Source: a bacterium (GTDB lineage Bacteria > Bacillota > Clostridia > Christensenellales > CAG-138). From it: 64,000 bases of DNA. The stretch lies in assembly GCA_963643205.1 (NCBI GenBank), contig CAVIJJ010000002.1, positions 1,256 through 65,255 of the forward strand. The letters are read 5' to 3'. A model generated the notes under the pieces. It was not told where the DNA came from, made no database searches, and was given only the letters and a program-made list of their open reading frames with translations. This document shows positions 1,474-59,265 of this stretch, in pieces. The first letter of the stretch is position 1, and each line of letters opens with the position of its first letter. The translations under genes were made by a program, and so were the position numbers.

Positions 1474-3372
1474 GTGCTTAAATCCAAATACCGTGGTGTA
1501 TTGGTGCTGTTGATGGACGTGTGCCTGATATTCGGCTTCAACTTCGCCATGTTCTTCGATCATCTCGCGTCCGACGGGATACAGTTATACAATCTTGTAA
1601 TGCATATCGGCCTTCTTACGGTATGCGTACTCGTGTTCCAGCTTATTTTCAAAACATACAATACTCTTTGGCGATATGCGGAAAGCCAGGAGTATCTTAC
1701 GCTGCTTAAGGGTATGGGCTGCGGTTTTTTGCTGTACACTTTGGTAAACGTAATACTCGGCACGAACAGGGTTTGGATAGTTGAGGCGTTTAACGGCACG
1801 GCTATCGCGCTTCTTGTAATGCTCGCGGTGCGCTTTATTTATCGCGCTTACAGGCGAAGCGTAAACGGGGCGGACAAATCGGCGAAGCGCGTTGTGGCGA
1901 TAGTCGGCGCGGGCACGGCGGGAGCGGCTCTTTTAAGCGATATTAAGGAAAATGTATACGGCGATTATAAGCCGTATTGCTTTGTGGACGATTCAAAAGA
2001 GAAGCAAGGAAAAACAATCCACGGCGTAAACGTTATGGGCCCGGTGGGCAGCATTGTTGAGCTGCTTGCGAATACGCCCGTTACGGATATAATAATAGCT
2101 ATAAACGCGGCTTCTGCCGAAAGGCGGCGCGAAATACTGAATGTATGCACAAATACCCGCTGCCGCGTGCATATATACGGAAACCCCCTAACTCAGATCG
2201 GCGCCGGGACGAAGGACGGCAAAAAGGTGGTAAGAGAGGTTCAGATAGAGGACCTTCTCGGCCGCGAGCCCATAAGGCTTGAAAATAAAAGGGTAAGTGA
2301 GTTTGTCCGCGGCAAGGTGGTGCTTGTAACGGGCGGCGGCGGATCGATAGGATCCGAGCTTTGCCGCCAGATAGCCGCGCAGGGGCCGAAAAGGCTTATT
2401 GTGCTGGACATCGCGGAAAACACAACATACGAGCTTCAGAACGACCTTATGCATACCTACGGCGCGGATTTCCCGCTGAGCGTAGAGATAGCCTCCGTGC
2501 GGGACAGGGCAAGGCTTGACGAGATATTCTCCCGCTACCGCCCGCAGCTTGTGCTGCACGCGGCGGCGCATAAGCACGTGCCGCTTATGGAAAGCTGCCC
2601 CGGCGAGGCAATAAAAAACAACGTGTTCGGAACATATAACACGGCCTGCGCCGCAAGAAAATACGGCGCGGAGAAATTCGTGCTTATATCAACGGATAAG
2701 GCCGTTAACCCCACAAACGTTATGGGTGCCACCAAGTGCCTGTGCGAGCAGGTGCTTCAATCCTTAAACGGCGGCGATACGGAGTTTGCCGCGGTGCGCT
2801 TCGGCAACGTATTGGGCTCAAGCGGCTCCGTTATTCCCCTTTTCAAAAAGCAGATAGAATACGGCGGACCCGTTACCATTACGGACAGGCGCATAATAAG
2901 ATATTTTATGACAATTCCAGAGGCGGCGCAGCTGGTGCTGGAGGCGGGGTATTTTGCCCATAAGGACGAGGTGTTCGTGCTTGATATGGGCGAGCCTGTG
3001 CGCATAGCGGACCTGGCGGACAAGCTTATAAGGCTTTCGGGCTATATTCCGGGCGTGGATATAGAGATAAAAGAGGTTGGCTTAAGGCCCGGGGAGAAGC
3101 TTTATGAGGAGCTTCTTATGTCCAACGAAAACCTGAACAGAACCGAAAACAGGAAAATATTCGTTGAAAAGCGCCCGGAGATGGACGAGGAGCTTATGAA
3201 GAGCAGGCTTGACGAACTTGAAAAAACGGTTGAAGCGGCGGACAATGAGGCCATGATTGCGGCCCTGCACAAGCTTGTGCCCACATTCAGAACCCCTGAC
3301 GAGGTTAATAAAAACGCCGAGCGCGTAAAGGCGGAGTGCGCCAGGTGCGCGGGCAGCGGGGTGGCCGTATGA
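1474..3372 (+). CDS. Membrane-bound polysaccharide biosynthesis protein, CapD/PglF/EpsC-type UDP-sugar 4,6-dehydratase
   Basis: N-terminal TM helices followed by two Rossmann motifs (IVGAGTAGA; VTGGGGSIGSEL). Start moved from the ORF-track 1432 to in-frame GTG 1474, which is preceded by GGAGGGG at 6 nt. Confidence 0.85.
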   Translation: MLKSKYRGVLVLLMDVCLIFGFNFAMFFDHLASDGIQLYNLVMHIGLLTVCVLVFQLIFKTYNTLWRYAESQEYLTLLKGMGCGFLLYTLVNVILGTNRVWIVEAFNGTAIALLVMLAVRFIYRAYRRSVNGADKSAKRVVAIVGAGTAGAALLSDIKENVYGDYKPYCFVDDSKEKQGKTIHGVNVMGPVGSIVELLANTPVTDIIIAINAASAERRREILNVCTNTRCRVHIYGNPLTQIGAGTKDGKKVVREVQIEDLLGREPIRLENKRVSEFVRGKVVLVTGGGGSIGSELCRQIAAQGPKRLIVLDIAENTTYELQNDLMHTYGADFPLSVEIASVRDRARLDEIFSRYRPQLVLHAAAHKHVPLMESCPGEAIKNNVFGTYNTACAARKYGAEKFVLISTDKAVNPTNVMGATKCLCEQVLQSLNGGDTEFAAVRFGNVLGSSGSVIPLFKKQIEYGGPVTITDRRIIRYFMTIPEAAQLVLEAGYFAHKDEVFVLDMGEPVRIADLADKLIRLSGYIPGVDIEIKEVGLRPGEKLYEELLMSNENLNRTENRKIFVEKRPEMDEELMKSRLDELEKTVEAADNEAMIAALHKLVPTFRTPDEVNKNAERVKAECARCAGSGVAV

Positions 3373-4112
3373 TAGATATACACAGCCACATACTCTATGG
3401 CGTGGACGACGGCTCCCGGTCCGCTGAGGACAGCATGATAATGGCCGAAACCGCCACGGAAAACGGCGTGAATGAAATGATAATGACTCCGCATTGCTGC
3501 GAGCCGGACGGATTCAATAACTTCAACACACCGGAGCTGAGGCGCAGGTTTGACCTTATGCGGGCCATGATGAGGGAAAAGGAAGTGCCGCTTAAGCTTC
3601 ATAACGGCATGGAGGTTTTCGCGACAAAAAATCTTGCGGAGCAGCTGGACGCGGGCAGGCTCTTAACCCTTGCGGGGTCAAAGTATCTGCTTATAGAGTT
3701 CGCGTTCGGTGAAATGGGGGATTTTATAGAGCGCAGTCTGCAAGCGGTTTTTGAGCGGGGACTTGTGCCGGTTATAGCGCACCCCGAAAGATATTATTTT
3801 GTTCAGGACGAGCCTCAGTTTTTGGAGCATTGCGCGCTCTGCGGCGCGGTGGTGCAGCTTAATAAGGGCAGCCTTTCGGGAATGTTTGGCCGCCATGCAA
3901 GAAAAACGGCCTTCTGGTGCCTGGAGCACGGATGCGTGCACATAATAGCCAGCGACGCGCACGGCCCTTATCAGCGCACAACAAAGCTTAACAATTGCTT
4001 TGACGCGGTTGCCGAATACTACGGAAAGGATGCCGCAAAGCTTCTTTTTGAGGAAAATCCGGCGGCTATAATAAAGAATGACGAGGTATTTGCCCTCGCG
4101 AGCGAATTTTAA
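3369..4112 (+). CDS. cpsB: PHP-family protein-tyrosine phosphatase (CpsB/YwqE type)
   Basis: Starts MIDIHSHILYGVDDG and has later IASDAHG and HPERY motifs typical of Mn-dependent CpsB phosphatases. ATG 3369 overlaps the upstream stop (ATGA). The ORF-track start 3336 was rejected. Confidence 0.85.
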   Translation: MIDIHSHILYGVDDGSRSAEDSMIMAETATENGVNEMIMTPHCCEPDGFNNFNTPELRRRFDLMRAMMREKEVPLKLHNGMEVFATKNLAEQLDAGRLLTLAGSKYLLIEFAFGEMGDFIERSLQAVFERGLVPVIAHPERYYFVQDEPQFLEHCALCGAVVQLNKGSLSGMFGRHARKTAFWCLEHGCVHIIASDAHGPYQRTTKLNNCFDAVAEYYGKDAAKLLFEENPAAIIKNDEVFALASEF

Positions 4113-4139: not shown

Positions 4140-4940
4140 ATGAAACGGCTTCATATCACAATGCTTATATTGTTCATTGCCTCGGCGTTGCTGCTTGGGG
4201 GAGTGCTGTTCTATAAGCATTATACAACCGATACCACCATGCCTGAAATAAGGATAGATGAGGAACCGCTGCAGCTTTCGGTAGCGGACGGTACGGACGC
4301 GCTCATGCAGGGGGTAAGCGCGTACGACGAAAAGGACGGAGACATAACGGACAATCTTATACTGCAAAAGATAGAAATGGTTGAATCGGGCGAGGTTGTG
4401 GCAACCTATGCCGTGGCGGACAACGACAGCCACGTTGTTACCCGCACAAGAACAATAGTGTATACGGACTATGTTTCCCCGCGCTTCAGCCTTTCAAAGG
4501 AGCTTAGATATTCCCCGACCGGCAGCATACAGGTTAGGGACCGCCTGACCGCTACGGACGTTATAGATGGCGACATAAGCGCGTCCATCCGCATAAACAC
4601 AAACAATCTTTCCCCGTATTACGCGGGAATTTACCCCGTTACGTTAGAGGTTACAAACAGCCTGGGCGACCACGTTTCGCTTACGCTTGATGTTGAGATA
4701 AGAACAATTGCCGATAATGAGCCGGTAATAACGCTTGATACATACCTTGTTTACATGACAAAGGAAGAATCAAAATCCTTTAAGCCCAAGGACTACGTTA
4801 AGGATGTTACAGGCGCGGACATAAAGGACGTGTATACCGACAAATCCCGCCTGAGCACGGGCGTGAACAGAGTTACCTATTCCTGCCGGAACGAAATAGG
4901 CGTGCGCGGCAGCGCGGTGCTCTACATAGTTGTGGAATAA
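4140..4940 (+). CDS. Membrane-anchored protein with repeated Ig-like (DUF5011-like) modules
   Basis: N-terminal TM helix (ITMLILFIASALLLGGVLFY). It then carries repeated A-x-D-x-x-DGDI(T/S) motifs (AYDEKDGDIT, ATDVIDGDIS), as in bacterial Ig-like/DUF5011 domains. Function unknown. Confidence 0.55.
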   Translation: MKRLHITMLILFIASALLLGGVLFYKHYTTDTTMPEIRIDEEPLQLSVADGTDALMQGVSAYDEKDGDITDNLILQKIEMVESGEVVATYAVADNDSHVVTRTRTIVYTDYVSPRFSLSKELRYSPTGSIQVRDRLTATDVIDGDISASIRINTNNLSPYYAGIYPVTLEVTNSLGDHVSLTLDVEIRTIADNEPVITLDTYLVYMTKEESKSFKPKDYVKDVTGADIKDVYTDKSRLSTGVNRVTYSCRNEIGVRGSAVLYIVVE

Positions 4941-4953
4941 GGGGGAGGCAGCA

Positions 4954-6444
4954 ATGGATACACACGCGTCAAACCGAATGACGGATATAAGCCTTGTCTG
5001 CGTTATCCGCCGAATAGTAAAGGAAATACCCACGATTATCGCGGCGGGCCTTATAGCGGCCATGCTTACGGTGTCGTACCTTAAGCTTTTTTATAAGCCC
5101 GAGTATACCGCAACGGCTACTGTTGCCGTGGGCATGAAAAACGCGAGCTACACATCCGTTTTTTCAAACCTTTCAAACACGTCCGAAATGGCGGGCACAT
5201 TTATAAAGCTTTTTGACAGCACAATGTTCTCGGTCATTTCAAAGGAAAAGCTGGGTGTTGAAAAGCTAAACGGCACTCTTACGGCAGCCGTTGTGCCTGA
5301 AACAAACCTTATGACAATGAGCGTAACGGCGGACAATCCTACGGACGCGTTCAAAACGCTCAGGTTTTTGCTTGATAACTATTCGGTTGTGTCGGACTAC
5401 GTTTTTCAAAACGTGGTGCTGAGGGAGCTTGACCCGCCGAGCGTGCCCGGTTCCCCGTCAAACCCGCTGCAGCTCACCTCCGCCGTAAAGCGCGCGTTCG
5501 CTATAGGCGCGGCGGCAATGGCACTTGCCATAATAGCATCCATACTGCTTGCCGACAGGGTGCAGACGTCCTCCGCCGCAAGGCATAAAATAGACGCTAA
5601 GCTTTACTGCACCATACATCACGAAACAAAGAACAAAACCCTTAGGACAAAGCTTAAAAAGACCACAAAGGGCCTTCTTATAACCAACACCACCTCAAGC
5701 TTCAGCTTCAGCGAGGAGGTGGCAAAGCTTGCCTCCCGCGTGTCGCACGCGGCAAAGCGGGACAATAAAAACGTTTTACTCGTCACAAGCGTTGCCGAAA
5801 ACGAGGGCAAGTCCACCGTTGCCGCGAACCTTGCAATTTCCCTTGCCCAAAAGGGCGGCACGGTGCTGCTTGTGGACGCGGATATGCATAAGCCCTCTCA
5901 GTTTAAGCTTTTCGGCTGCGAGGTTAAAACCGAGCTTGCGGACATACTGCGCGGAGCGCGCCGGCTTGAATCGGAATACCTTGAAAAATACGGCGTAAAC
6001 GTAATACTCTCATCAAAAACTCAGAGCGACGCGGCGGAGCTTTTGTCCTCAAAGCAGATGAGAAAAATACTGGCGGATATAAGCGCCGCAACGGATTATA
6101 CAATAATAGACTCACCGCCTATGGCAATGTTTTCGGATTCGGAAATACTGGCGGATATAGCGGACTACTCGCTCCTTGTCGTAAGGCAGGACTGCGTAAG
6201 CGCCGGCAGAATTAACGACGCCGTGGATATGCTCAATCAAAGCAAGGCGCACCTGCTGGGAGTGGTGTTTAACGACGTGCGCTCAACGCCCATAGTGGGT
6301 CACAGCAGCTATGGCTACGGCTACGGATATGGCTACGGTTACGGCTACGGCCATCACTACGGCTACAACAAGGCCTATGGCTACGGCGAATCTAAGGGCA
6401 AGCACAGGCATACGGAGGGGACCGATGGAAGAAAAGAAGGTTGA
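4954..6444 (+). CDS. Fused Wzz-type chain-length modulator / BY-tyrosine kinase (paralog 1)
   Basis: Two TM helices flank a Wzz-like ectodomain, followed by a P-loop kinase: Walker A SVAENEGKST, Walker A' LLVDADMHKPS, Walker B YTIIDSPP. The C-terminal Tyr cluster is (YG)7HHYGYNKAYGYG. The start was chosen at ATG 4954 (GGGGGAGG upstream). Confidence 0.85.
   Translation: MDTHASNRMTDISLVCVIRRIVKEIPTIIAAGLIAAMLTVSYLKLFYKPEYTATATVAVGMKNASYTSVFSNLSNTSEMAGTFIKLFDSTMFSVISKEKLGVEKLNGTLTAAVVPETNLMTMSVTADNPTDAFKTLRFLLDNYSVVSDYVFQNVVLRELDPPSVPGSPSNPLQLTSAVKRAFAIGAAAMALAIIASILLADRVQTSSAARHKIDAKLYCTIHHETKNKTLRTKLKKTTKGLLITNTTSSFSFSEEVAKLASRVSHAAKRDNKNVLLVTSVAENEGKSTVAANLAISLAQKGGTVLLVDADMHKPSQFKLFGCEVKTELADILRGARRLESEYLEKYGVNVILSSKTQSDAAELLSSKQMRKILADISAATDYTIIDSPPMAMFSDSEILADIADYSLLVVRQDCVSAGRINDAVDMLNQSKAHLLGVVFNDVRSTPIVGHSSYGYGYGYGYGYGYGHHYGYNKAYGYGESKGKHRHTEGTDGRKEG
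6310..6351 (+). repeat. Hexanucleotide (TAY-GGN)7 tract encoding the (YG)7 phospho-acceptor tail of kinase 1
   Basis: tat ggc tac ggc tac gga tat ggc tac ggt tac ggc tac ggc, read directly from the sequence. Confidence 0.9.
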
Positions 6445-7954
6445 TCGCCGGGACGATGGGGCGATAGATATATCGCGGCTTTTGATGGAGTTTCTTCCGG
6501 TACTGAAGAAGCTTTTCTGGGTACCGCTTGTGTTCGCGTTTATAGCGGGGGCGCTTGTTTTCGTAAGGGCATATTTAAGCTATACGCCCATGTATGAATG
6601 CGAGGTTACGTTTACGGTAGAGGTTGTTACAACCTCAACAACGGGCAGCGAATCAAGCAGCGGCTACAGCTATTACAATAAGGCAACGGCGGAGCAGCTG
6701 GGAAAAACGTTCCCTTATCTTATAAGCTCGGATCTTATGTATTCCCGGCTTAAAAAAGAGCTTGGCGTAACCGGCATAAACGGCACCATAACCGCCGAAA
6801 CGATGGACAACACAAACCTTTTCACCATGCGCGTAACCAGCAGCAGCCCAAAGGACGCGAAAAACATACTTGAGGCGGTGATAAAGCTTTATCCGGAGGT
6901 TGCGGACTACGTTATAGGCAGCACGGCAATGAACCTTTTGACGGATCCGGTTGAGCCCAGTGTACCGTATAACAGCTTTAACGGGGTAAACTCGGCCGTA
7001 AAGGGCGCGATAGTTGGCGCGGTTGTGGGCTTTGGCATACTTATGCTGTGCGCCGCGGTGAGGAACACCGTGCGCGAGCCGGACGACATTCGCGTAAAGC
7101 TGAACCAAACCTGCCTTGCAACGCTTCCTAAGGTCACGTTCAAAAAGCGCAAGCAGAACAAGGTTAATACCCTTTCAATAATGAATAAGCGCGTATCGGG
7201 CTCCTTCCACGAAAGCATACGCAGCCTAAGAATAAAGCTTTTAAGGCGGCTTGAAGGTAAGGGATGCCACGCAATACTTGTTACAAGCACCATGCCGGGC
7301 GAGGGCAAAACAACCGTTTCAACAAACCTGGCGCTGTCGCTCAGCAAAAACGGCGCGCGCGTAATACTTATAGATATGGACTTAAGGCGCCCCAGCGTAA
7401 AGAAGGCGCTTGGCATAACCGAGCCCACAAACGGGCTTGTTGAGCTTAGGGAGCGCAAAGTAAAAAGCGTTGGCGAATGCCTCTGCCAGCTGGAGGGCAC
7501 GTCGCTTAAACTGCTTGCCGGGGACAATGCCCGCAAGAGCACCCGCCCCATAAGCGTAAAATGGCTGAAAAACCTTATAGATACTCTCAGAAGCCAGGCG
7601 GACTTTATAATTGTGGACACTCCGCCGTGCGGTCTGCTTGCGGACAGCGCGAACATAGCAAGCGCCGTGGACTCAGCGCTTTATGTAATAGGCGCGGGCG
7701 GGGTAGAGGTAGCCAATATACTGGACAGCCTTCAGTTCCTTTCCGAATCCGGCACGGAGGTTATAGGCTGCGTGCTCAACGGCGTAGAAACAACCATAGG
7801 CGGAAGCCACGGCTACGGATACGGCTATGGCTACGGTTACGGTTACGGCTATTCCAAATACGGCTACGGCTACCGCAGCCGGGAGGACAGCGACGATAAA
7901 GACGACAGCGACGATAGCGACGCAAACGAAGAATCATTCGGCGAAAGCGAGTAA
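6425..7954 (+). CDS. Fused Wzz-type chain-length modulator / BY-tyrosine kinase (paralog 2)
   Basis: Starts MEEKKVDRR (GGAGGGG upstream) and overlaps paralog 1 by 20 nt. It has two TM helices, Walker A STMPGEGKTT, Walker A' ILIDMDLRRPS and Walker B FIIVDTPP. The tail is H(GY)7SKYGYGY followed by an acidic SREDSDDKDDSDDSD stretch. The ORF-track start 6311 is an out-of-frame read of the upstream YG repeat. Confidence 0.85.
   Translation: MEEKKVDRRDDGAIDISRLLMEFLPVLKKLFWVPLVFAFIAGALVFVRAYLSYTPMYECEVTFTVEVVTTSTTGSESSSGYSYYNKATAEQLGKTFPYLISSDLMYSRLKKELGVTGINGTITAETMDNTNLFTMRVTSSSPKDAKNILEAVIKLYPEVADYVIGSTAMNLLTDPVEPSVPYNSFNGVNSAVKGAIVGAVVGFGILMLCAAVRNTVREPDDIRVKLNQTCLATLPKVTFKKRKQNKVNTLSIMNKRVSGSFHESIRSLRIKLLRRLEGKGCHAILVTSTMPGEGKTTVSTNLALSLSKNGARVILIDMDLRRPSVKKALGITEPTNGLVELRERKVKSVGECLCQLEGTSLKLLAGDNARKSTRPISVKWLKNLIDTLRSQADFIIVDTPPCGLLADSANIASAVDSALYVIGAGGVEVANILDSLQFLSESGTEVIGCVLNGVETTIGGSHGYGYGYGYGYGYGYSKYGYGYRSREDSDDKDDSDDSDANEESFGESE
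7811..7852 (+). repeat. Hexanucleotide (GGN-TAY)7 tract encoding the (GY)7 tail of kinase 2
   Basis: ggc tac gga tac ggc tat ggc tac ggt tac ggt tac ggc tat. It is near-identical in composition to 6310-6351. Confidence 0.9.
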
Positions 7955-7959
7955 TTGCC

Positions 7960-8424
7960 ATGGAACCCGTTAAGCGCACGGTAGACACACAAAGCTACAT
8001 GAGCGTGCTCCGCGAGCTTGCGGAGAGCGGAGAAACCGTGTGCCTTACCATAACGGGCAGCAGCATGGTTCCCTTTCTTGTTCACGGGAGGGACAGCATA
8101 CGCTTTATTAAGCCGAAGGAGCCGCTTAAGCGGGGCGATATGGCCTTTTTTGTGCGAAAAAACGGACAATACGTTATGCACAGAATCATACGCCGGGATA
8201 AATACGGCAGGTATTTCGCCGTTGGGGACGCGCAAACGGAAATAGAAGGCCCGATTGAGGAAAGGGCCGTTTTCGGGCTTGTAACGGACGCGTGCCGCAA
8301 GGGCAAGTGGATTAAAAAAGGCGATTTTTGGTGGGACTTTTTTGCGGGGCCATGGCTTAGACTTATAAAAATAAGACCGGTGCTTATGAAACTCGGCTTT
8401 TTGGTGCCTAAAGGACTGCGATAA
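7960..8424 (+). CDS. S24/S26-type serine peptidase-like protein (signal-peptidase-I/LexA fold)
   Basis: 154 aa. It has an ITGSSMVPFL nucleophile motif and GQYVMHRII at the position where S24/S26A enzymes carry the general-base Lys (a His, as in SipW/ER-type S26B). There is no N-terminal TM helix, but the C-terminus is hydrophobic. Confidence 0.55.
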   Translation: MEPVKRTVDTQSYMSVLRELAESGETVCLTITGSSMVPFLVHGRDSIRFIKPKEPLKRGDMAFFVRKNGQYVMHRIIRRDKYGRYFAVGDAQTEIEGPIEERAVFGLVTDACRKGKWIKKGDFWWDFFAGPWLRLIKIRPVLMKLGFLVPKGLR

Positions 8425-8448
8425 ACTCAGCGGAAAGGCGGCGAGGCA

Positions 8449-10230
8449 ATGGAAAAGAATATGCCCAAGCGGAAGGTGCTTGGATCCGAGGCGCTGGGCG
8501 AATTGCTTGGCCGCGTGAAGGACGGCACTTTTAAGGACATTGTAATCGACTGGAAATGGATAGCGGCATACACCCGCCGTTACCGCGCGGCCGTTGTGAT
8601 ATACACGCTTTTGGGAATACTGAGCGCCTCTTTCGCGCTTGTTTCGGCCATAGCCAGCAAATACACAATTGATATAATTACGGGGCAGGATGAGGCGAAG
8701 CTTTGGTTTGTGATAACGGTAATGCTTTTGTCCGCCGTGCTGAGCGTTGCCCTAAACAGCGCCGTTTCAAGAATATCCGCAAAGGTTTCAATAAAGGTAA
8801 ATAACGATATACAGGCCGAAATATTCGATAATGTTATCCGCGCGGACTGGAGCGCGCTGAACTCCTACCCGGGCGGGGATTTGCTCAACCGCCTGAATAC
8901 GGACGCGTACACCGTTGCCGGCAACGCCATAAGCTGGCTGCCGGACCTTATAATAGCGGTATACACGTTCATAATAACGCTTCTCTCAATTCTTTATTAC
9001 GACGCGATAATGGCTGTTCTCGCTCTTTCAAGCGCGCCGTTCCTTATATTCAGCGCCCGAAGGCTGCTTGCCAAAATGCGTTCCTTCGGCCAAAAGGCGC
9101 GGGAGCTGAACAGCGACCTTATGAGCTTTGAAACGGAAACGTTTAATAACCTTGATTCCATAAAAAGCTTTGGCATAACCGATAGGCAAAGCGAGCGGCT
9201 TAGGGAAAAGCAGGCGAATTACAAAAAGGTTTCGCTTGATTATAATCTTTTCAGCATAAAAACGCAGGCCGCGCTTTCGCTTATAGGCTCCGCCGTGCAG
9301 ATGGCCGCGTTTTGCTACTGCCTGTATCTTCTTTGGAACGGGAAAATACTCTACGGCACCATGACCCTTTTCCTTTCGCAAGGGGCGAAGCTTTCTTCCG
9401 CCTTTAATTCGCTTGTAAAAACCGTGCCCGTGTTCCTTAATGCGTCGGTTTCAGCGTCAAGAATACGCGAACTTATGGCAATACCGCCCGAGCGGATAGG
9501 CGCGGGTGAGGACGCGCTGAACGCGGATCAAGGCTTAAGCGTTAAGCTTGAAAACGTAAGCTTTGCTTATAAAGAAAACGAAATCGTGCTTAAAAACGTT
9601 TGCTTTTCGGCCGAGCCCGGCGAGATAGTCGCGCTTATAGGCCCGTCCGGCGGCGGCAAAACCACAATGGTGCGCATGATACTTTCGCTTATAACCCCTA
9701 AAAACGGCAGCGCAACGCTTTCGGACGCGCACGGTTCAAGGCAGCAGATGAACGCTTCCCTAAGGGGATTCTTCTCCTATGTGCCGCAGGGGAACACGCT
9801 TATTTCCGGCACGATTGCCGATAATTTAAGAATGGTTAAAAGCGACGCAACGGACGCGGAGCTTGAGGCGGCGCTTAAAACGGCGTGCGCGTGGGAATTC
9901 GTTTGCAAAATGGACGGCGGAATAAACGCCTCCGTAGGGGAGCACGGCCACGGCCTGTCCGAAGGGCAGGCGCAGCGCGTGGCAATAGCGAGAGCCGTGC
10001 TCAGAAACGCCCCGGTAATGCTGCTTGACGAGGCCACATCCGCGCTTGACGTGGCAACCGAGCGGCAGGTGCTTAAATCCATAATGCTTGCCCACCCGAA
10101 CAAAACCTGCGTTGTTACAACGCATAGGCCGAGCGTATTGGGCCTGTGCGGCAGGGTATACAGGGTGCATTGCGGCATGGTTGAGGAAATAGACGGCGAC
10201 ACAGCCGAAAAACTGACCATGGATTATTGA
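8449..10230 (+). CDS. ABC exporter half-transporter (MsbA/PglK-like, fused TMD-NBD)
   Basis: 593 aa. A six-helix exporter domain is followed by an NBD with Walker A GPSGGGKTT, signature LSEGQAQR and Walker B VMLLDEATSALD. There is no C39 peptidase domain. Confidence 0.9.
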   Translation: MEKNMPKRKVLGSEALGELLGRVKDGTFKDIVIDWKWIAAYTRRYRAAVVIYTLLGILSASFALVSAIASKYTIDIITGQDEAKLWFVITVMLLSAVLSVALNSAVSRISAKVSIKVNNDIQAEIFDNVIRADWSALNSYPGGDLLNRLNTDAYTVAGNAISWLPDLIIAVYTFIITLLSILYYDAIMAVLALSSAPFLIFSARRLLAKMRSFGQKARELNSDLMSFETETFNNLDSIKSFGITDRQSERLREKQANYKKVSLDYNLFSIKTQAALSLIGSAVQMAAFCYCLYLLWNGKILYGTMTLFLSQGAKLSSAFNSLVKTVPVFLNASVSASRIRELMAIPPERIGAGEDALNADQGLSVKLENVSFAYKENEIVLKNVCFSAEPGEIVALIGPSGGGKTTMVRMILSLITPKNGSATLSDAHGSRQQMNASLRGFFSYVPQGNTLISGTIADNLRMVKSDATDAELEAALKTACAWEFVCKMDGGINASVGEHGHGLSEGQAQRVAIARAVLRNAPVMLLDEATSALDVATERQVLKSIMLAHPNKTCVVTTHRPSVLGLCGRVYRVHCGMVEEIDGDTAEKLTMDY

Positions 10231-10321
10231 GAATTCAGCTGAAAAAGCTTGTTTTTTGAAATTATATGCGGTATACTATGGCTATCCGTAAGGATATAAG
10301 ATTCAGTCGGAGGGGACTAAA

Positions 10322-10549
10322 ATGAAAAAATTCTTTGCACTGGTATTGGCAATGGCCCTTATATGCTGCTTTACCACCGCTGCGCTTGCTGACAGCGACG
10401 TGGTCAGCCCCGAAAATGGCAATACAGACGTTGATTCCAACGAGACTTCTCCGCAGACCGGTTACGATTTCGGTATCGAGAGCGTGGTACTGCTGGCTGT
10501 GCTTTGCGGCGGCGCGGCGCTGTACATTGGCAAAAAGGTTAAGGCCTAA
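10322..10549 (+). CDS. 75-aa secreted mini-protein with sortase sorting signal SPQTG
   Basis: GGAGGGG RBS. It has a Sec signal peptide (MKKFFALVLAMALICCFTTAALA), an acidic 23-aa mature segment (DSDVVSPENGNTDVDSNETSPQT), an SPQTG motif, a hydrophobic helix and a KKVKA tail. A terminator lies immediately downstream. Confidence 0.7.
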   Translation: MKKFFALVLAMALICCFTTAALADSDVVSPENGNTDVDSNETSPQTGYDFGIESVVLLAVLCGGAALYIGKKVKA

Positions 10550-10578
10550 GCCTTATTCAGCATCCTAAACGAACTTTA

Positions 10579-10616
10579 GCTCCATAAATGCGTGGCCGTT
10601 TATGGAGCGTTTTTTT
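10579..10616 (+). terminator. Rho-independent terminator after the mini-protein gene
   Basis: GCTCCATAAA-loop-TTTATGGAGC followed by GTTTTTTT. Confidence 0.8.
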
Positions 10617-10651
10617 GCCCCATATTCTGAAAACGAAAGGGAGAGGGCCGA

Positions 10652-11494
10652 ATGAAAAAATCCGTAAAGATAATACTCAGCCTGCTGTGCGTTGTAATGG
10701 CGGCGGTATGTGTTTGCTGTGTGCTTTATATTGTGCAGTATGTTCGCGGAAACGACCTTAATGAAAGGCTTGTGAGCAACGTTGCGTCCCAAACCGTTGA
10801 AGCCGTGCTGACCGAGGCGGAGGATGAAACGGGCGATGAAACCGACGGCGGCGAAACCGCGGCCGGGGACGAAACAAAGGAAGCGCCGCAAAAAACATTC
10901 AAGAATATTGACTTTGCCGCGCTTAGCGCGATAAACGGGGATATATACGCCTGGATAGATATGCCGGGCACCGTTATAAACTACGCCGTTGTGCAGAGCG
11001 AGGATGAAAACGAGTTTTATTCGGATCATTCCGTGGACGGCAGCTACTATTCCGGCGGCAGCATTTTTTCGCAGCGCTATAATAAGCGGGACTTTACGGA
11101 TCCCGTTACCGTGCTTTACGGGCACAACCGCAAAAACGGCACCATGTTTGCCGCGCTTAACGATTTCGCGGACCCGACATTCTTTGAAAAGCACAAAACA
11201 GTTTATATTTATATTGAGGGCATGGTATATGAATATACCGTGTTCGCCGCATATCCGCACAGCAGTGAGCATCTGCTCCTTAATCACGATTTTACGGACG
11301 AGGAAGAGTTTACCGAGTATTTCGGCTCGCTTAAGGATGGCGTAAACACGAATTACGATAGGGATATGTTCCCGCTGTTCGGGGATAAGGTGCTAACGCT
11401 TTCAACCTGCTATAAGGAAAACCGCATGCAGCGCTATCTTGTGCAGGCAAAGCTTACCGCGCAGTACTCTCTGGTTTACGACAAGGCGGAATAA
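10652..11494 (+). CDS. srtB: Class B sortase
   Basis: N-terminal TM anchor and acidic linker. The segment DIYAWIDMPGTVINYAVVQ is class-B-like. It has catalytic His (VLYGHN), catalytic Cys (LTLSTC) and a downstream Arg (RYLVQAKL). Confidence 0.85.
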   Translation: MKKSVKIILSLLCVVMAAVCVCCVLYIVQYVRGNDLNERLVSNVASQTVEAVLTEAEDETGDETDGGETAAGDETKEAPQKTFKNIDFAALSAINGDIYAWIDMPGTVINYAVVQSEDENEFYSDHSVDGSYYSGGSIFSQRYNKRDFTDPVTVLYGHNRKNGTMFAALNDFADPTFFEKHKTVYIYIEGMVYEYTVFAAYPHSSEHLLLNHDFTDEEEFTEYFGSLKDGVNTNYDRDMFPLFGDKVLTLSTCYKENRMQRYLVQAKLTAQYSLVYDKAE

Positions 11495-11497
11495 CCA

Positions 11498-12595
11498 ATG
11501 GAAAAAACCAAGAAAAAGGGCAAAATAAGCCCGATATTGCTTATATTCATAATACTCGCCTCCCTTACGGCGGCGCTTGTGAGCGCGGCGCTTATAATAT
11601 GGTTCAGCGGGCGCGCCTCGTTAAGCAACAAGGAAACAAAGGCTCCCGCGCTTGTGGAGGTGCCTAAGCCGGAAGAAACGGAGACCGTGGCGGCGGAACC
11701 CACGCCCACACCGAATACAAAAATAGAGTACGATATAACGAGCGGCGGAAGATATTATAAATATAAAGACGGGCTTATAAATCTGCTCCTCATAGGCGTT
11801 GATTCGGACAAAAAGCCATCAAAGCCGCTTGAGTACGGCAACAATAACCAGGCGGACGTTATAATACTGGCCTCGCTTGACACAAAGAACAGCGAAATGT
11901 CCCTTATAGCCGTTAACCGCGATACCATGTGCGACTTGACCGTAACCGACAGCGACGGAAACATTACCGGCATAGGCCGCGGGCAGATTGCCCTTTCGTA
12001 TTCTTACGGCGACGGGTTGGACGCAAGCTGTCAGCTTTGCAGGGATGCCGTTTCAAACCTGTTTTACGGGCTTCAGATAGATGGCTACGCCGCGTTTTAC
12101 ATGGGCGGCGTGGAGGAGCTTAACGACGCGCTTGGCGGAATAACCGTAACTATACTGGGCGATTACCCATTTACCAAGCACTCCGGCTGCAGAAACATGA
12201 AGGAGGGCGAGGAGGTTACGCTTACCGGCAAGCAGGCCGCGGCCTATATAAGATACAGGCTCCATACAGAGGACGGCAATACGGGCCGCATGGCCAGGCA
12301 AAAGCAATATATGCTTGCGATGATTAAAACCGCGCGGCAGAAGATTTACGAAAACCCCACGTGCGTTGTGAACCTTTATACGTCGCTTAACAAATATATA
12401 ATAAGCGATCTTGATGTGGGTGAGCTGAGCTACCTGGCCACTGAGGCCGCGGGTATGTCCTTCTCGGGCGATATATACAAGCTTGAGGGTGAGTCGATTG
12501 TAAGTGACGAGGATCATGTTGAGCTTACTATTGATGATCAATCCCTGTTTGATACAATGATAAGCGTGTTTTATGAGGACGTTACCCCCGAATAA
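11498..12595 (+). CDS. LytR-CpsA-Psr (LCP) family cell-wall glycopolymer ligase
   Basis: TM anchor followed by the LCP core LLLIGVDSD...NQADVIILASLD...LIAVNRDT. There is a 3-nt gap to srtB. Confidence 0.85.
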   Translation: MEKTKKKGKISPILLIFIILASLTAALVSAALIIWFSGRASLSNKETKAPALVEVPKPEETETVAAEPTPTPNTKIEYDITSGGRYYKYKDGLINLLLIGVDSDKKPSKPLEYGNNNQADVIILASLDTKNSEMSLIAVNRDTMCDLTVTDSDGNITGIGRGQIALSYSYGDGLDASCQLCRDAVSNLFYGLQIDGYAAFYMGGVEELNDALGGITVTILGDYPFTKHSGCRNMKEGEEVTLTGKQAAAYIRYRLHTEDGNTGRMARQKQYMLAMIKTARQKIYENPTCVVNLYTSLNKYIISDLDVGELSYLATEAAGMSFSGDIYKLEGESIVSDEDHVELTIDDQSLFDTMISVFYEDVTPE

Positions 12596-12649
12596 GGCGC
12601 GAAAGGGAAACTCAAGGGCTTTTGCGAGCGCCGCGGGAGCCCTTTTTCC

Positions 12650-16793: not shown

Positions 16794-16870
16794 TGGCGTA
16801 CCCAAAAGGGTTCGAACCTTCGGCCTTCAGAGTCGGAGTCTGACGCTCTATCCAGCTGAGCTATGGGTAC
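16794..16870 (-). tRNA. tRNA-Arg (anticodon CCG)
   Basis: The cloverleaf was folded by hand. The acceptor stem is GTACCCA/TGGGTAC, the D arm GCTC/GAGC and the anticodon stem TCAGA/TCTGA with loop CTCCGAC (CCG). The T arm is GAAGG-TTCGAAC-CCTTT. The CCA end is encoded. Confidence 0.85.
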
Positions 16871-16964: not shown

Positions 16965-17235
16965 GCGCGCCAAGCGGGGAGTTAGCGGTGCCCTGAACCT
17001 GCAATCCGCTATAGCAGGGTGTGATTCCTGCCGTGAGGCAAAGCGACGTAGGGCTGGAATAAGAGCGAAGCGTTGATGGCCGTGTCCTGTGCAATCGAAG
17101 GCCGTGAACCATGTCAGGTCCTGACGGAAGCAGCATTAAGCGGAAAATTCGATGTGCCGCGGGAATGCATGGCCGGAGCTTAGCTTATTGTGTGCCGCCT
17201 ATGGTGCTTTATGTCGAGCGGTGGGTGCGCGCTTT
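16965..17235 (+). ncRNA. ffs: Signal recognition particle RNA, long (Bacillus/Clostridium type with Alu domain)
   Basis: The conserved domain IV reads GUCAGGUCCUGACGGAAGCAGCAUUAAG. The Alu-domain element GUUAGCGGUGCC is present, as are the AUGUGCCGCGGG and GGCCGGAGCUUAGC segments seen in B. subtilis scRNA. The 5' GCGCGCC pairs with the 3' GGUGCGCGC, followed by a T-run. The ends are good to about +/-5 nt. Confidence 0.85.
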
Positions 17236-17313: not shown

Positions 17314-17334
17314 ATCGGCGTAAAAATAAACAGC

Positions 17335-17530
17335 GTGCGATAATACGTCGCGTGAAGGCGCGGCGCGGCGGCAAAACAAGCCGCCGGGGAATCGGATGAG
17401 AATTCCGAACTATCCCAGTAACCGTGATGCGGACGAAAAAGCATTTTCAGTCACTGCCGCGTAGAAAGCGGCGGGAAGGCGCTTGAGTAGGGCGAAGCTA
17501 AGTCGGGAAACCTGTTATGGCATGGTAACT
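17335..17530 (+). promoter_or_regulatory. Cobalamin (AdoCbl) riboswitch aptamer
   Basis: The core reads GGGGAAUCGGAUGAGAAUUCCGAAC. It is followed by CACUGCCGCG...GCGGCGGGAAGG and the B12 box AAGUCGGGAAACCUGUUAUGG. The downstream genes are corrinoid uptake and salvage genes. Confidence 0.8.
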
Positions 17531-17575
17531 TCTGGGGTTGAGTGAAACTGTATTGCATAGGCTTGCTTGTGTTAT

Positions 17576-48769: not shown

Positions 48770-48787
48770 AAAAGATAATAAAGTTTT

Positions 48788-49157
48788 GAGTAAGCCATGC
48801 GGTCGCGTGCGGAATCCAATGGATCATCCGCATGAGGAAAGTCCGGGCTCCGCAGGGCAGGGTGCCGGATAACGTCCGGCGGGGGCGACCCCAGGGATAG
48901 TGCAACAGAGATATACCGCCGCTTTAAGCGGTAAGGATGGAAAGGCGAGGTAAGAGCTCACCGGCGGGGCGGGTAACCGTTTCGTCCTGTAAACCCCACC
49001 CGGTGCAAGATTGGAATGGGAGCGCGTGCGCTTTTGCGCAGAAATGGCTGCCCGTCATGCTCCTGATAATCGCGCGAGTGCGGCGGCAACGCCGTGCCAA
49101 GATAGATGGCCGCACGCCGGTTTTACCGGCCGACAGAACCCGGCTTATTGCTTGCTC
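48788..49157 (+). ncRNA. rnpB: RNase P RNA, class A
   Basis: The P4 halves are GAGGAAAGUCCGGGCUCC and ACAGAACCCGGCUUA. GGGCAGGGUGCCGGAUAACGUCCGG is class-A-like. P1 pairs GAGUAAGC with GCUUGCUC. ORF-track entries inside the RNA are spurious. Confidence 0.85.
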
Positions 49158-49169
49158 ATATTTATTTAC

Positions 49170-55676: not shown

Positions 55677-56918
55677 TTATTGCTTCAGGCCGAAGTAAGA
55701 GGCAAGTTTTTCTCTTCGTTCCTGAAGCTTTTCTTTTATCCGCGCGTGGCGTTCGATCATTTCAGCTTCTCCGCTGCGGGCGGCAAGCGCGGCGTAGCGG
55801 TCGTGAGCGCTGGCTATAACCTTGTCCCAGTCGTGGGGAATGGTGTCGTGCGCGGCCTGCCCCATGCGTGTGAGGGCATCGGTATCGTGCATATATTTAA
55901 GCAGCAGCTCGCCCAGCTTTTCGCCGTCGTCCGGGCATACAAGTCCGTTTTGTCCATTCACTATCGGCTCCGCCGGCGCTGAACCCTCTATTGCCACACC
56001 GGGGGTATACATTGCGGCCGCCTCGCGTATAACAAGCGAAAATGTATCATACTGCGATGGGAACGTGAAAAGCGTGGCCGCCTGATAAAGCCCGTCAAGC
56101 AAATGGGTATTCATGATATGCCCTGTGAAAACAAGCGTGTCAAATACGTTCATTTCTTTCGCCTTCGCTTTAATGGCGTCCTCGTCCGGGCCTTGACCCG
56201 CAAGCACCACGCTGAAGCGTTCTCCACGCGCCTTAAGATACGCCGCCGCCTCAAGCAGGCGTAGTATTCCTTTTTTCCAGTTTATCTGGCCTACAAACAG
56301 AAATACCGGGTTGCTTTCGTCAATGTGAAAATGCTCTATCGCGGCCTGCCTGTCCTCAGCCTTTACCGGGCGCATTTCAGTGCCGTTTTCCATTATTATG
56401 ATTTTTCCCGTGTAGCCGTAATCGCGCAGCACATCGGCGGAGGACTTGCTTACCGTCCAAACCTCGTCACAGCGATCGTAAAAATCAACAACGAATTTAA
56501 CGCCTATGTTCGCCAGCAGCTCCGCATGGGTTGCCTTGTAAAAATCGTCATAATATTTTGAATGGAATGTGCCCACAAGCGGCAGATTGTACTTGGAGCA
56601 GATTCTAAGCGCTTCCTGACCCGCGAAAAACGGGGTGTGCGCGTGGCAAACATCAAGCTGAATCATATCCATGCGGTCCATGTAGTGCTTATCGAGTACG
56701 GCAAGGCCCACCTTGTACTGCGGGGTGCCTATAACGGGATTTGCCGTGTAATCAATAAGCTCAAAGGGGTAGCCTCCACGGTATCCGGTATCGTTCTGCG
56801 GCGCTATAACATAGCACTCGTCACCGGTTTTCGCAAGGCCGTTGGCATAGCTGTAAACCACGCGGCCAACGCCGTCAACTATCGGAAGAAAGCTTTCGCT
56901 GAATTGTCCTATTCGCAT
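55677..56918 (-). CDS. Family 4 glycosyltransferase
   Basis: MRIGQFSESFLPIVDGVGRVV N-terminus and an E-x7-E-like FTFPSQYDTFSLVIREAAA segment. Confidence 0.8.
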   Translation of the reverse strand: MRIGQFSESFLPIVDGVGRVVYSYANGLAKTGDECYVIAPQNDTGYRGGYPFELIDYTANPVIGTPQYKVGLAVLDKHYMDRMDMIQLDVCHAHTPFFAGQEALRICSKYNLPLVGTFHSKYYDDFYKATHAELLANIGVKFVVDFYDRCDEVWTVSKSSADVLRDYGYTGKIIIMENGTEMRPVKAEDRQAAIEHFHIDESNPVFLFVGQINWKKGILRLLEAAAYLKARGERFSVVLAGQGPDEDAIKAKAKEMNVFDTLVFTGHIMNTHLLDGLYQAATLFTFPSQYDTFSLVIREAAAMYTPGVAIEGSAPAEPIVNGQNGLVCPDDGEKLGELLLKYMHDTDALTRMGQAAHDTIPHDWDKVIASAHDRYAALAARSGEAEMIERHARIKEKLQERREKLASYFGLKQ

Positions 56919-59155: not shown

Positions 59156-59216
59156 AGTCCAACAGAATTCGCATGCGGCGTGAAATGCCCGTGTGAATCT
59201 TGTTGGACTTTTTTAT
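59156..59216 (+). terminator. Long hairpin plus T-run between yezD-like ORF and the giant gene (terminator/attenuator)
   Basis: AGTCCAACA ... TGTTGGACT encloses a structured ~36-nt insert and is followed by TTTTTT. It lies 50 nt upstream of ATG 59266. Confidence 0.6.
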
Positions 59217-59265
59217 TCTGCCGGCCTTGCGGAGCGAATATCGTAAAAGGAGGAAAACTACGATA

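Follow-up and report, generated by a model that had tools for sequence, protein, structure and literature searches.

A predicted 75-residue sortase substrate, a class B sortase and an LCP protein form a conserved cassette in a Christensenellales capsule regulation locus

What do a peptidase, an ABC exporter, a 75-aa mini-protein, a class B sortase (SrtB) and a LytR-CpsA-Psr (LCP) protein have in common when their genes follow directly on two bacterial tyrosine kinase (BY-kinase) genes? The question is raised by a stretch of 64,000 nt from a bacterium of the Christensenellales lineage CAG-138 (assembly GCA_963643205.1, contig CAVIJJ010000002.1, positions 1,256 to 65,255 of the forward strand), hereafter called the window. 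An earlier note on this DNA had read the five genes as one compact module that could make and display a small peptide stub on the cell wall, possibly as an acceptor for the polysaccharide handled by the neighbouring kinase machinery, with a peptidase and an exporter dedicated to that peptide. The physical description was accurate. The five genes are co-directional on the + strand at 7960–12595, their coordinates, the two gaps named and the terminator were all as described, and the peptidase gene starts 5 nt past the end of the second BY-kinase gene (7954). In the list of open reading frames (ORFs), the intergenic gaps are 24 nt between peptidase and ABC exporter, 91 nt between exporter and mini-protein, 102 nt between mini-protein and srtB, and 3 nt between srtB and the LCP gene. 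It was found that the region makes up the distal end of a locus for capsule regulation and anchoring, in which the five genes are the tail of a regulation-and-ligation cassette of the CpsABCD kind and no free-standing module. They fall into two units, the peptidase (S24pep) with the exporter (Unit 1) and the mini-protein with SrtB and LCP (Unit 2). Of the earlier interpretation, the sorting signal of the mini-protein and the conserved trio beside the BY-kinase cassette were upheld; the single five-gene pathway with its dedicated peptidase and exporter was not.

The mini-protein consists, in order, of MKKFFALVLAMALICCFTTAALA, DSDVVSPENGNTDVDSNETSPQT and GYDFGIESVVLLAVLCGGAALYIGKKVKA. Its predicted layout comprises a signal peptide of ordinary Sec type (aa 1–23, cleaved between ALA and D), a mature, acidic anchored peptide of 23 residues (aa 24–46), the sorting motif SPQTG (aa 43–47), a transmembrane (TM) segment and a KKVKA tail. 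An SPE box occupies aa 29–31, and a strong ribosome-binding site, GGAGGGGA, lies ahead of the gene at 10309–10316. No Pfam or NCBIfam family was matched by the mini-protein. A signal peptide, an (S/P)PxTG motif, a hydrophobic segment and a positively charged tail together make up a cell-wall sorting signal, and the same architecture was found in 71 full-length family members. By its sequence, the mini-protein is a predicted class B sortase substrate.

A word-indexed homologue search with the mini-protein gave only nine matches, and a full profile scan of 1.84 billion representatives was needed to recover 87 cluster representatives. These are mostly 70–118 aa long and share a common architecture of Sec signal peptide, (V/I)xSPE box, short acidic or Pro-rich linker, SPQTG, TM segment and K/R tail. 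Because the family has 87 representatives and the dN/dS of the gene against its relatives is 0.16–0.32, the mini-protein gene is real and under purifying selection. The (V/I)xSPE box is near-universal, lying 1–10 residues past the signal peptide in 53 of the 71 full-length members, and in most of the others SP precedes K, T, D or Q. In some members the box is multiplied, with three repeats in representative P0297 and seven tandem xxSPE repeats in P0311, the gene for which lies directly upstream of SrtB and LCP genes and beside genes for CapD, an ABC exporter and two BY-kinases. The mature parts are acidic and rich in Pro, Thr and Ser, with a median Ser-to-Thr distance of 18 residues, and are too short to fold, so that a role as enzyme or adhesin domain is excluded by size. 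Mini-proteins of Lachnospiraceae, found by position and not by homology, have an SP motif at the start of the mature part in four of five cases, the motif being absent in L078. A Ser-Pro box that is conserved and sometimes multiplied would fit a modification or acceptor site.

The sortase and the LCP protein are recognisable members of their families. SrtB matched the sortase domain PF04203 at 49.3 bits (cut-off 26.6) and came close to the class B equivalog TIGR03064 (144.5 bits, cut-off 153.75). It has an N-terminal membrane anchor, and His158, Cys253 (within TLSTC) and Arg261, corresponding to the catalytic His, TLxTC Cys and Arg of class B sortases, are invariant in 42 homologues. Its best solved relatives are the SrtB proteins of B. 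anthracis, Listeria, C. difficile and S. aureus. The LCP protein matched PF03816 at 85.8 bits (cut-off 24.6) and TIGR00350 at 65.9 bits (cut-off 62.3), and has the N-terminal TM anchor and conserved Arg motifs of the family, the aligned region holding the Arg-bearing stretches VNRDT, IRYR and GRMARQ. Its score against the CpsA/Cps2A equivalog NF051849 was 35 bits, far from the cut-off of 650. The LCPs encoded beside SrtB form a clade separate from the CpsA-type LCPs that adjoin the second BY-kinase gene (BYK2) in Lachnospiraceae, and this separation holds across orders: SrtB-linked LCPs of Lachnospiraceae score 170 bits against window-type LCPs and 63 bits against the sortase-free LCPs of Lachnospiraceae. 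In sequence terms, the LCP beside SrtB is a distinct subfamily.

To compare arrangements, 80 species-representative genome loci centred on peptidase homologues and 80 metagenome loci centred on sortase homologues were used, and the ORFs of the fetched loci were annotated with hidden Markov models (HMMs) built in this analysis. The order seen in the window, CpsB phosphatase, an Ig-like membrane protein (Ig266), the two BY-kinases (BYK1 and BYK2), S24pep, ABC exporter, mini-protein, SrtB and LCP, recurs in relatives 65–72 % identical. The five genes are thus syntenic, as the earlier note had wished to see checked, and the arrangement is beyond chance.

Thirteen SrtB lineages were distinguished at <90 % identity. 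In 11 of these, srtB is immediately preceded by a mini-protein gene with a sorting signal, and in the remaining two a small sorting-signal ORF is found just past the LCP gene. Eleven lineages had enough downstream sequence to place the LCP gene, and in 10 of them it is the next gene after srtB, at a distance of −28 to +11 nt; the exception is L058, where the LCP ORF overlaps srtB more deeply. The mini-protein gene, srtB and the LCP gene are a conserved cassette in the 13 SrtB lineages, usually beside the cassette of CpsB, Ig-like protein and two BY-kinases, and the trio is in our judgement a likely capsule-anchoring cassette.

Several arrangements of the cassette were observed. The window type is BYK2-S24pep-ABC-mini-SrtB-LCP, loci L056 and L131 have a divergent arrangement, and in Lachnospiraceae the order is BYK2-mini(SPKTG)-SrtB-LCP. 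The slot after BYK2 in Lachnospiraceae holds either a lone CpsA-type LCP or mini-SrtB-LCP. All five genes are present in rearranged order in the distant locus L169, with S24pep(−) on one side of mini-SrtB-LCP-CapD and ABC(−)-BYK2(−)-BYK1(−) on the other, and in the L124 lineage the trio occurs without the S24pep/ABC pair within 8 kb. Locus L171 (GCA_964612925.1, CAZTFU010000003.1, 2399–12332) reads Ig266-BYK1-BYK2-ABC-mini-SrtB-LCP, lacks both S24pep and CpsB, and may be regarded as a natural experiment on dispensable parts.

A layout with a small gene, srtB and an LCP gene adjoining BY-kinase and phosphatase genes, seen in the window and its relatives, is also that of a cluster in Mediterraneibacter gnavus. 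Deletion of srtB4 in that species, or disruption of the LCP or tyrosine phosphatase gene, abolishes capsule display, and the srtB4 and LCP mutants, which were tested for it, also lost gut colonisation fitness (PMC13121745, Nat Commun 2026). According to the primers of the same study, RGna_12030 lies immediately upstream of srtB4 and supplies the srtB4 promoter. M. gnavus has several sortase B genes, of which only the cluster-encoded one affects the capsule; the authors considered it unlikely that the sortase makes the capsule directly and offered no mechanism (PMC13121745). The published primers had no match in the fetched loci. With this cluster and the GspA/LcpA/SrtA pathway of Actinomyces (PMC6381275) as close precedents, the earlier statement that no system of this composition had been described is out of date.

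The signals around the mini-protein gene were also compared. The window and the L001/L010 clade agree in the hexamers of a promoter-like site ahead of the gene (Table 1) but have diverged in its spacer, and other lineages have TTGCxx-17-TATAxT at the same place; in the window the −35 hexamer matches at three of six positions only, and the site is absent from the consensus-scan list. Behind the gene, a hairpin with a 12-bp stem (10579–10608) is followed by a T-run. Its stem, CCATAAATG...CGTTTATGG, is conserved across lineages in one copy per locus, with counterparts in L001 (10628–10660) and L056 (~3085–3106, − strand) and also in L125, L131 and L138. Because the stem is more conserved than a terminator requires, the hairpin may serve as an attenuator or bind a protein through its palindrome. 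Partial termination or attenuation is its probable effect, with only some transcripts continuing into srtB-LCP, and together the conserved promoter and hairpin suggest that the peptide is highly expressed and that transcription reads on in part into srtB-LCP. A stem of about GYCCCATAAATG-N3-8-CGTTTATGGGRC with its T-run was seen to be kept across lineages with SrtB proteins only 52–72 % identical; the Lachnospiraceae loci have unrelated hairpins. Since sortase substrates of C. difficile are regulated by c-di-GMP, positions 4–13 kb were scanned with Rfam, and no riboswitch or known RNA was found near the mini-protein gene.

The first unit has a different distribution. S24pep matched PF00717 at 25.5 bits (cut-off 23.3), and its residues Ser35 (GSSM), His74 (MHR) and Asp90 are invariant in 38 homologues, with no N-terminal TM or hydrophobic segment. 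The AlphaFold2 (AF2) model (pLDDT 84) had LexA, lambda CI, UmuD', SipA and SpsB as top fold matches, the top Foldseek matches all being S24/S26 proteins at probability 1.0 and E about 1e-3. In a profile search of PDB sequences, Ser35 and His74 aligned, weakly (E=0.11), with the catalytic Ser56 and His96 of SEC11A. These features are those of a serine peptidase of the S24/S26 type (clan SF) with His74 rather than Lys as the general base, and S24pep is accordingly modelled as a Ser/His peptidase of S24/S26 fold, predicted to be cytoplasmic because it has neither a signal peptide nor an N-terminal TM segment. Attachment to the membrane is probable through its C-terminal helices, which are rich in Trp and Phe. 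The Ser/His chemistry resembles that of Sec11, but the topology differs. A SipW-type label, proposed earlier, does not apply, as no membrane anchor is present in the 38 homologues and the TIGR02228 score is 23.4 bits against 51.85. Two further candidates were set aside: the ruminococcin C peptidase RumPc as a relative of S24pep, RumPc being an M16 metallopeptidase, and a SipA/LepA-like role as sortase chaperone, ruled out by the invariant Ser/His, the lack of an export signal and the mostly sortase-free loci.

The ABC exporter has no peptidase domain, and its best NCBIfam matches are all far below their cut-offs. Orthologues 50–64 % identical adjoin S24pep in about 50 loci. The comparison with PglK-type transporters that had been offered fell away with a score of 166 bits against NF050066 (cut-off 1000) and about 18 exporter models ranking higher. 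Assignment to the peptidase-containing ABC transporters (PCATs) was likewise rejected, the protein having only ABC_membrane and ABC_tran domains, a transmembrane domain (TMD) from about residue 50 and no C39 domain.

Neighbours were counted in those peptidase loci that had 6 kb or more of flanking sequence on each side, 38 in all. BY-kinases were found in 26 of the 38, radical-SAM, PqqD or ScmC-like genes in 24, BY-kinases or maturation genes in 35, and SrtB in six. The maturation set consists of a PqqD-type peptide chaperone, a radical-SAM/SPASM enzyme, an HprK-related protein and an NTP_transf_5 nucleotidyltransferase; the HprK-related protein matched the ScmC and HprK_rel models weakly, the ScmC name coming from the SynChlorMet cassette of NCBIfam. 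BY-kinase and maturation genes are interleaved in L033, L063, L067, L071 and L073. In addition, S24pep/ABC with maturation genes was seen fused to or interleaved with the CpsB/Ig-like/BY-kinase cassette in L005 (5739–12928), L027, L049, L055, L075 and others.

Several loci also encode a Cys-rich, precursor-like family of about 80 aa (L005 12623–12862, − strand; L013; L036; L062; L124 4201–4440), with MKKxYxKPxhxFExFEL at the N-terminus and CYxxP...(I/L)F(T/N/S)S, closed by an invariant Ser, at the C-terminus. By analogy with pseudomycoidin, this last Ser may be phospho-glycosylated. A literature search gave no papers pairing ScmC with radical SAM, and a wider search gave only general surveys of ribosomally synthesised and post-translationally modified peptides. 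Peptidase homologues 51–56 % identical were also seen on contigs of metagenome-assembled genomes (MAGs) labelled Bacteroidales, Bacteroidaceae, Prevotellaceae or Phocaeicola (L038, L046, L059, L064, L068, L087); these may reflect mis-binning or transfer from Clostridia.

Taken as a whole, we favour an account in which the two units act separately and the capsule is held by a peptide stalk, and we hold this account tentatively, with confidence just short of even. In Unit 1, transcription would read through from the BY-kinase genes across gaps of 5 and 24 nt, and S24pep and the exporter would trim and export a small leader-bearing peptide other than the mini-protein, tied to BY-kinase control or polysaccharide priming. 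That Unit 1 handles a peptide is possible, with the balance somewhat against it; a leader-peptide role would be the most likely one and is weakly grounded for the window genome.

In Unit 2, the 75-aa preprotein would leave the cell via Sec and be cut after ALA23 by signal peptidase, while its C-terminal TM segment and KKVKA tail would retain it in the membrane. The specialised LCP would then move capsular glycan 1-phosphate from undecaprenyl-pyrophosphate onto the peptide rather than onto N-acetylmuramic acid (MurNAc), the most likely site being the conserved SPE-box Ser. SrtB would cut between T and G of SPQTG and join the 23-residue DSDVVSPENGNTDVDSNETSPQT to the stem peptide of peptidoglycan, so that the capsule would be linked to the wall via a short peptide stalk. 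We infer the acceptor role, the acceptor site, the order of these steps and the substrate of Unit 1. For the mini-peptide as glycan acceptor, to which the LCP subfamily split and the SPE box point, we see a real possibility that falls somewhat below an even chance.

A broader form of this account would have two routes to peptide-tethered capsules in gut Clostridia. In the wall-linked route, the LCP subfamily would phosphoglycosylate the SPE-box Ser on a substrate of ~20 residues and SrtB would fix the glycopeptide to peptidoglycan. In the exported route, S24pep/ABC with the HprK-like kinase, NTP_transf_5, radical-SAM and PqqD proteins would make and export a Cys-rich peptide, phospho-glycosylated at its invariant last Ser, as primer, carrier or signal for the same polysaccharide machinery. 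We regard this combination as unlikely.

Several observations weigh against the account in two units. With HMMs from relatives, no homologues of radical-SAM, PqqD, ScmC, NTP_transf_5 or the precursors were found in the 64-kb window. Because L171 has the exporter without the peptidase, the exporter may have a role that does not involve the peptidase, for example flipping a lipid-linked glycan. The frequency of the SPE box among the 87 hits is partly circular, the box being part of the search profile. The window LCP shows no greater similarity to LcpA of Actinomyces than to ordinary LCPs, and no Actinomyces chain is among its 14 PDB matches. No glycosyltransferase (GT), Wzx or Wzy genes adjoin the locus in the window; the sole GT gene found there is a GT4 gene at 55677–56918, and the ORFs sampled elsewhere are housekeeping genes. 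The window also encodes a second (S/P)PQTG substrate, a surface protein of 1507 aa, and for this reason SrtB may be a general sortase, not dedicated to the mini-protein. This protein (59200–63723, + strand) was seen to have Listeria-Bacteroides repeats, a PT-rich stalk, a C-terminal PPQTG, a TM segment and a KRKRG tail. Orthology between the window and the M. gnavus cluster is drawn from synteny and one primer-encoded motif, QNPDIYAW versus INGDIYAW, and the M. gnavus phenotypes are explained equally well by classical transfer from LCP to MurNAc with an indirect role for the sortase.

This classical ligation is the alternative to which we give most weight, and we consider it somewhat unlikely. 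The LCP would join the capsule to MurNAc as CpsA/Cps2A do, and SrtB and a glycan-free mini-peptide would contribute indirectly, for instance by decorating stem peptides so as to create, space or protect attachment sites, or by organising the ligase. All characterised Firmicutes LCPs ligate to peptidoglycan (a review; role cited in PMC13121745), the window LCP has the usual domain and Arg motifs with ordinary LCPs as best matches, and the M. gnavus data establish only a need for both genes. What classical ligation leaves unexplained is the separate clade of SrtB-linked LCPs, their exchange for a CpsA-type LCP at the same locus position, and a Ser-Pro box that is kept in the peptide and multiplied in some members. 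That the adjacency is generic, with SrtB a general sortase as in C. difficile, the mini-protein a minor substrate and the link to LCP and capsule mechanistically meaningless, is improbable. The 1507-aa PPQTG protein would be one more substrate of such an enzyme, and the single SrtB of C. difficile does serve several (S/P)PxTG proteins, but mini-SrtB-LCP is kept in 13 lineages, in two gene orders and with near-zero srtB-LCP spacing, the LCP co-diverges with SrtB, and among the sortase B genes of M. gnavus only that of the cluster acts on the capsule.

The remaining alternatives concern S24pep and the exporter. The model of the earlier note, in which both serve the mini-protein and all five genes form one pathway, can draw on the adjacency of the genes in the window and its 65–72 % identical relatives and on their reunion, reordered, in L169. 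It is nevertheless extremely unlikely: the mini-protein has a canonical Sec signal peptide, the peptidase has no export signal or TM anchor and would face the cytoplasm, the pair occurs without SrtB in 32 of the 38 well-flanked loci and co-varies with other genes, the L124 lineage has the trio alone, and L171 has lost the peptidase and kept mini-protein, SrtB and LCP. For these reasons the pair is not taken to serve the mini-protein. A further reading, which we rate as highly improbable, makes the C-terminal fragment left after sortase cleavage (GYDFGIESVVLLAVLCGG...KKVKA) the functional or waste product, degraded or exported by S24pep and the exporter and possibly signalling anchoring to the BY-kinases. 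Streptococci reportedly sense cleaved sorting-signal peptides, in the window clade and L171 the mini-protein gene is the next gene after that of the exporter, and in the close family conservation of the mini-protein is highest in the sorting-signal tail (dN 0.11, against 0.25 for the mature part). This conservation weakens in the wider family, however, and S24pep and the exporter are mostly found in loci without a sortase.

The features of the locus are collected in Table 1. The CpsB phosphatase gene is the first of the capsule-regulation cassette, and the position of the Ig266 gene between it and the first BY-kinase gene is constant in relatives. The probable start of BYK2 is Met39 of an ORF opening at 6311, as judged from the gene call in L001 (6440–7969). 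The C-terminal (YG)n tails of the tandem paralogues BYK1 and BYK2 are unusually regular, and the triple Ig266-BYK1-BYK2 is kept across Clostridia.

Table 1. Features of the capsule regulation-and-anchoring locus, in positions of the window
Feature	Position	Strand	Basis
CpsB-type PHP phosphotyrosine phosphatase	3336–4112	+	NF041488 Cps4B E=3.7e-43, below equivalog cut-off; PF19567 CpsB_CapC on L001 orthologue
Ig266, 266-aa membrane protein with Ig-like domain	4140–4940	+	PF16403 E=1e-6
BY-kinase 1 (BYK1), fusion of Wzz chain-length domain and tyrosine autokinase, (YG)n tail	4930–6444	+	PF02706 Wzz; TIGR01007 122.4 bits, cut-off 108
BY-kinase 2 (BYK2), paralogue of BYK1	6425–7954	+	TIGR01007 116.4 bits
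S24pep, predicted S24/S26-fold Ser/His peptidase, 154 aa	7960–8424	+	PF00717 Peptidase_S24
ABC exporter, MsbA-type half-transporter (TMD, nucleotide-binding domain), 593 aa	8449–10230	+	PF00664 and PF00005
Promoter-like site TTGTTT-17 nt-TATACT ahead of mini-protein gene	10249–10277	+	
Mini-protein, predicted sortase substrate, 75 aa	10322–10549	+	
Hairpin and T-run between mini-protein gene and srtB	10579–10616	+	Terminator scan
Sortase SrtB, 280 aa	10652–11494	+	PF04203 Sortase
LCP glycopolymer phosphotransferase, 365 aa	11498–12595	+	PF03816 LytR_cpsA_psr
Terminator after LCP gene, closing the mini-srtB-LCP unit	12614–12644	+	13-bp stem, then T-run

Upstream of the cassette lie genes for an epimerase and a CapD-like 4,6-dehydratase, followed by CpsB, Ig266 and the two BY-kinases. 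Downstream are housekeeping genes (a Ribonuclease_3-domain gene, PF00636; ThyX; a SpoU methylase; a sigma factor) and, further on, cobalamin salvage genes, MetRS, DnaX and SecA. Rfam matches in the window were a tRNA (16797–16870, − strand), SRP RNA (16965–17232), a cobalamin riboswitch (17328–17533) and RNase P RNA (48787–49162), the riboswitch preceding genes for a Peripla_BP_2/FecCD/ABC transporter and CobT/CobU/CobS. The closest homologues of S24pep are from a MAG of an uncultured Clostridium sp. (96 %) and then a Christensenellaceae MAG (72 %), and most relatives are from human-gut metagenomes.

The component families are ordinary, and both the need of a sortase for a capsule and the idea of an LCP acting on a sortase substrate have already been published. 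Three elements appear to be undescribed in the searchable literature, namely the SPE-box family of mini-substrates, the fixed association of a mini-substrate with a dedicated SrtB/LCP pair in the capsule loci found in gut Clostridia, and a peptidase/exporter with a peptide-maturation set embedded in BY-kinase cassettes. A conserved SPE-box mini-protein together with an LCP subfamily coupled to a sortase offers a candidate mechanism for the unexplained sortase-capsule phenotype of M. gnavus. If the proposal is true, some Gram-positive capsules would join the wall via a sortase-anchored peptide stalk and not always through direct LCP transfer to MurNAc, a previously unrecognised mode of capsule attachment in Firmicutes, and the idea that an LCP glycosylates a sortase substrate would extend from Actinobacteria to abundant human-gut Clostridia. 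Since inflammation and colonisation are influenced by the capsule of these organisms, intervention might be possible at the sortase and at the peptide. The peptidase/exporter and maturation set within BY-kinase cassettes across many Clostridia are a second lead.

Among known systems, the CpsA-CpsB-CpsC-CpsD set of S. pneumoniae, an LCP ligase, PHP phosphatase, Wzz-like modulator and BY-kinase that head a Wzy-type locus, has homologues of all four members in the window. The window differs in that CpsC and CpsD are fused and duplicated as BYK1 and BYK2, an Ig-like membrane protein is inserted, and the LCP belongs to another clade and stands at the far end, behind peptidase, ABC exporter, mini-substrate and sortase. 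In the PEP-CTERM/exosortase system (Haft), small low-complexity proteins with a sorting signal occur with a dedicated transpeptidase in polysaccharide/BY-kinase loci of Gram-negative bacteria. A PEP-CTERM-related NCBIfam model matches the window BY-kinases; the system is an analogy only, with an unrelated enzyme family, another signal and another envelope.

For the peptidase, two comparisons were made. The S. pyogenes pilus chaperone SipA/LepA is extracellular and membrane-anchored and has no catalytic residues. It has an S26 fold, is encoded near a class B-type sortase gene and was the fold match of rank 7 (PDB 4n31), whereas S24pep keeps an invariant Ser/His, has no export signal and mostly occurs without a sortase. 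PCATs and the cassettes with HprK, nucleotidyltransferase and PqqD (paeninodin and pseudomycoidin, PMC6993621; SynChlorMet and HPr-rel in NCBIfam) combine a cytoplasmic leader peptidase with an ABC exporter, as is proposed here, and S24pep/ABC of the relatives likewise sits with PqqD, radical-SAM/SPASM, HprK-related and NTP_transf_5 proteins and Cys-rich precursors. Pseudomycoidin is phosphorylated on its C-terminal Ser by the HprK kinase, and the addition of hexoses to this residue requires the nucleotidyltransferase-like PsmN (PMC6993621). In contrast to the PCAT and lasso cassettes, S24pep is a separate Ser/His enzyme in place of a fused C39 domain, a lasso cyclase is absent, and the cassette lies within BY-kinase loci.

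For the trio, the SrtB of C. difficile, among the best solved-structure matches, is of the same class as the window sortase and uses the same sorting motif, cleaving SPQTG between T and G in vitro (PMC4155245). Its substrates differ, being ordinary surface enzymes or adhesins encoded elsewhere, with no LCP or capsule link described. The srtB4 cluster of M. gnavus (RGna_12030–12060) resembles the window in having a class B sortase gene beside LCP, BY-kinase and tyrosine phosphatase genes, and its small upstream gene is not described as a substrate in the paper. The window organism is of a different order, and has SPQTG, and its kinase genes are separated from the cassette by those for S24pep and the ABC exporter.

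In Actinomyces, GspA is a larger protein, and lcpA is not known to be encoded beside srtA and gspA. The pathway also differs in being actinobacterial and in using a housekeeping sortase of class E/A type. In Actinomyces oris, the sortase substrate GspA is first glycosylated by LcpA and then anchored by SrtA (PMC6381275), and the route suggested here for the mini-protein would follow the same principle, with an LCP placing a glycopolymer on a Sec-exported sortase substrate that the sortase then fixes to peptidoglycan.

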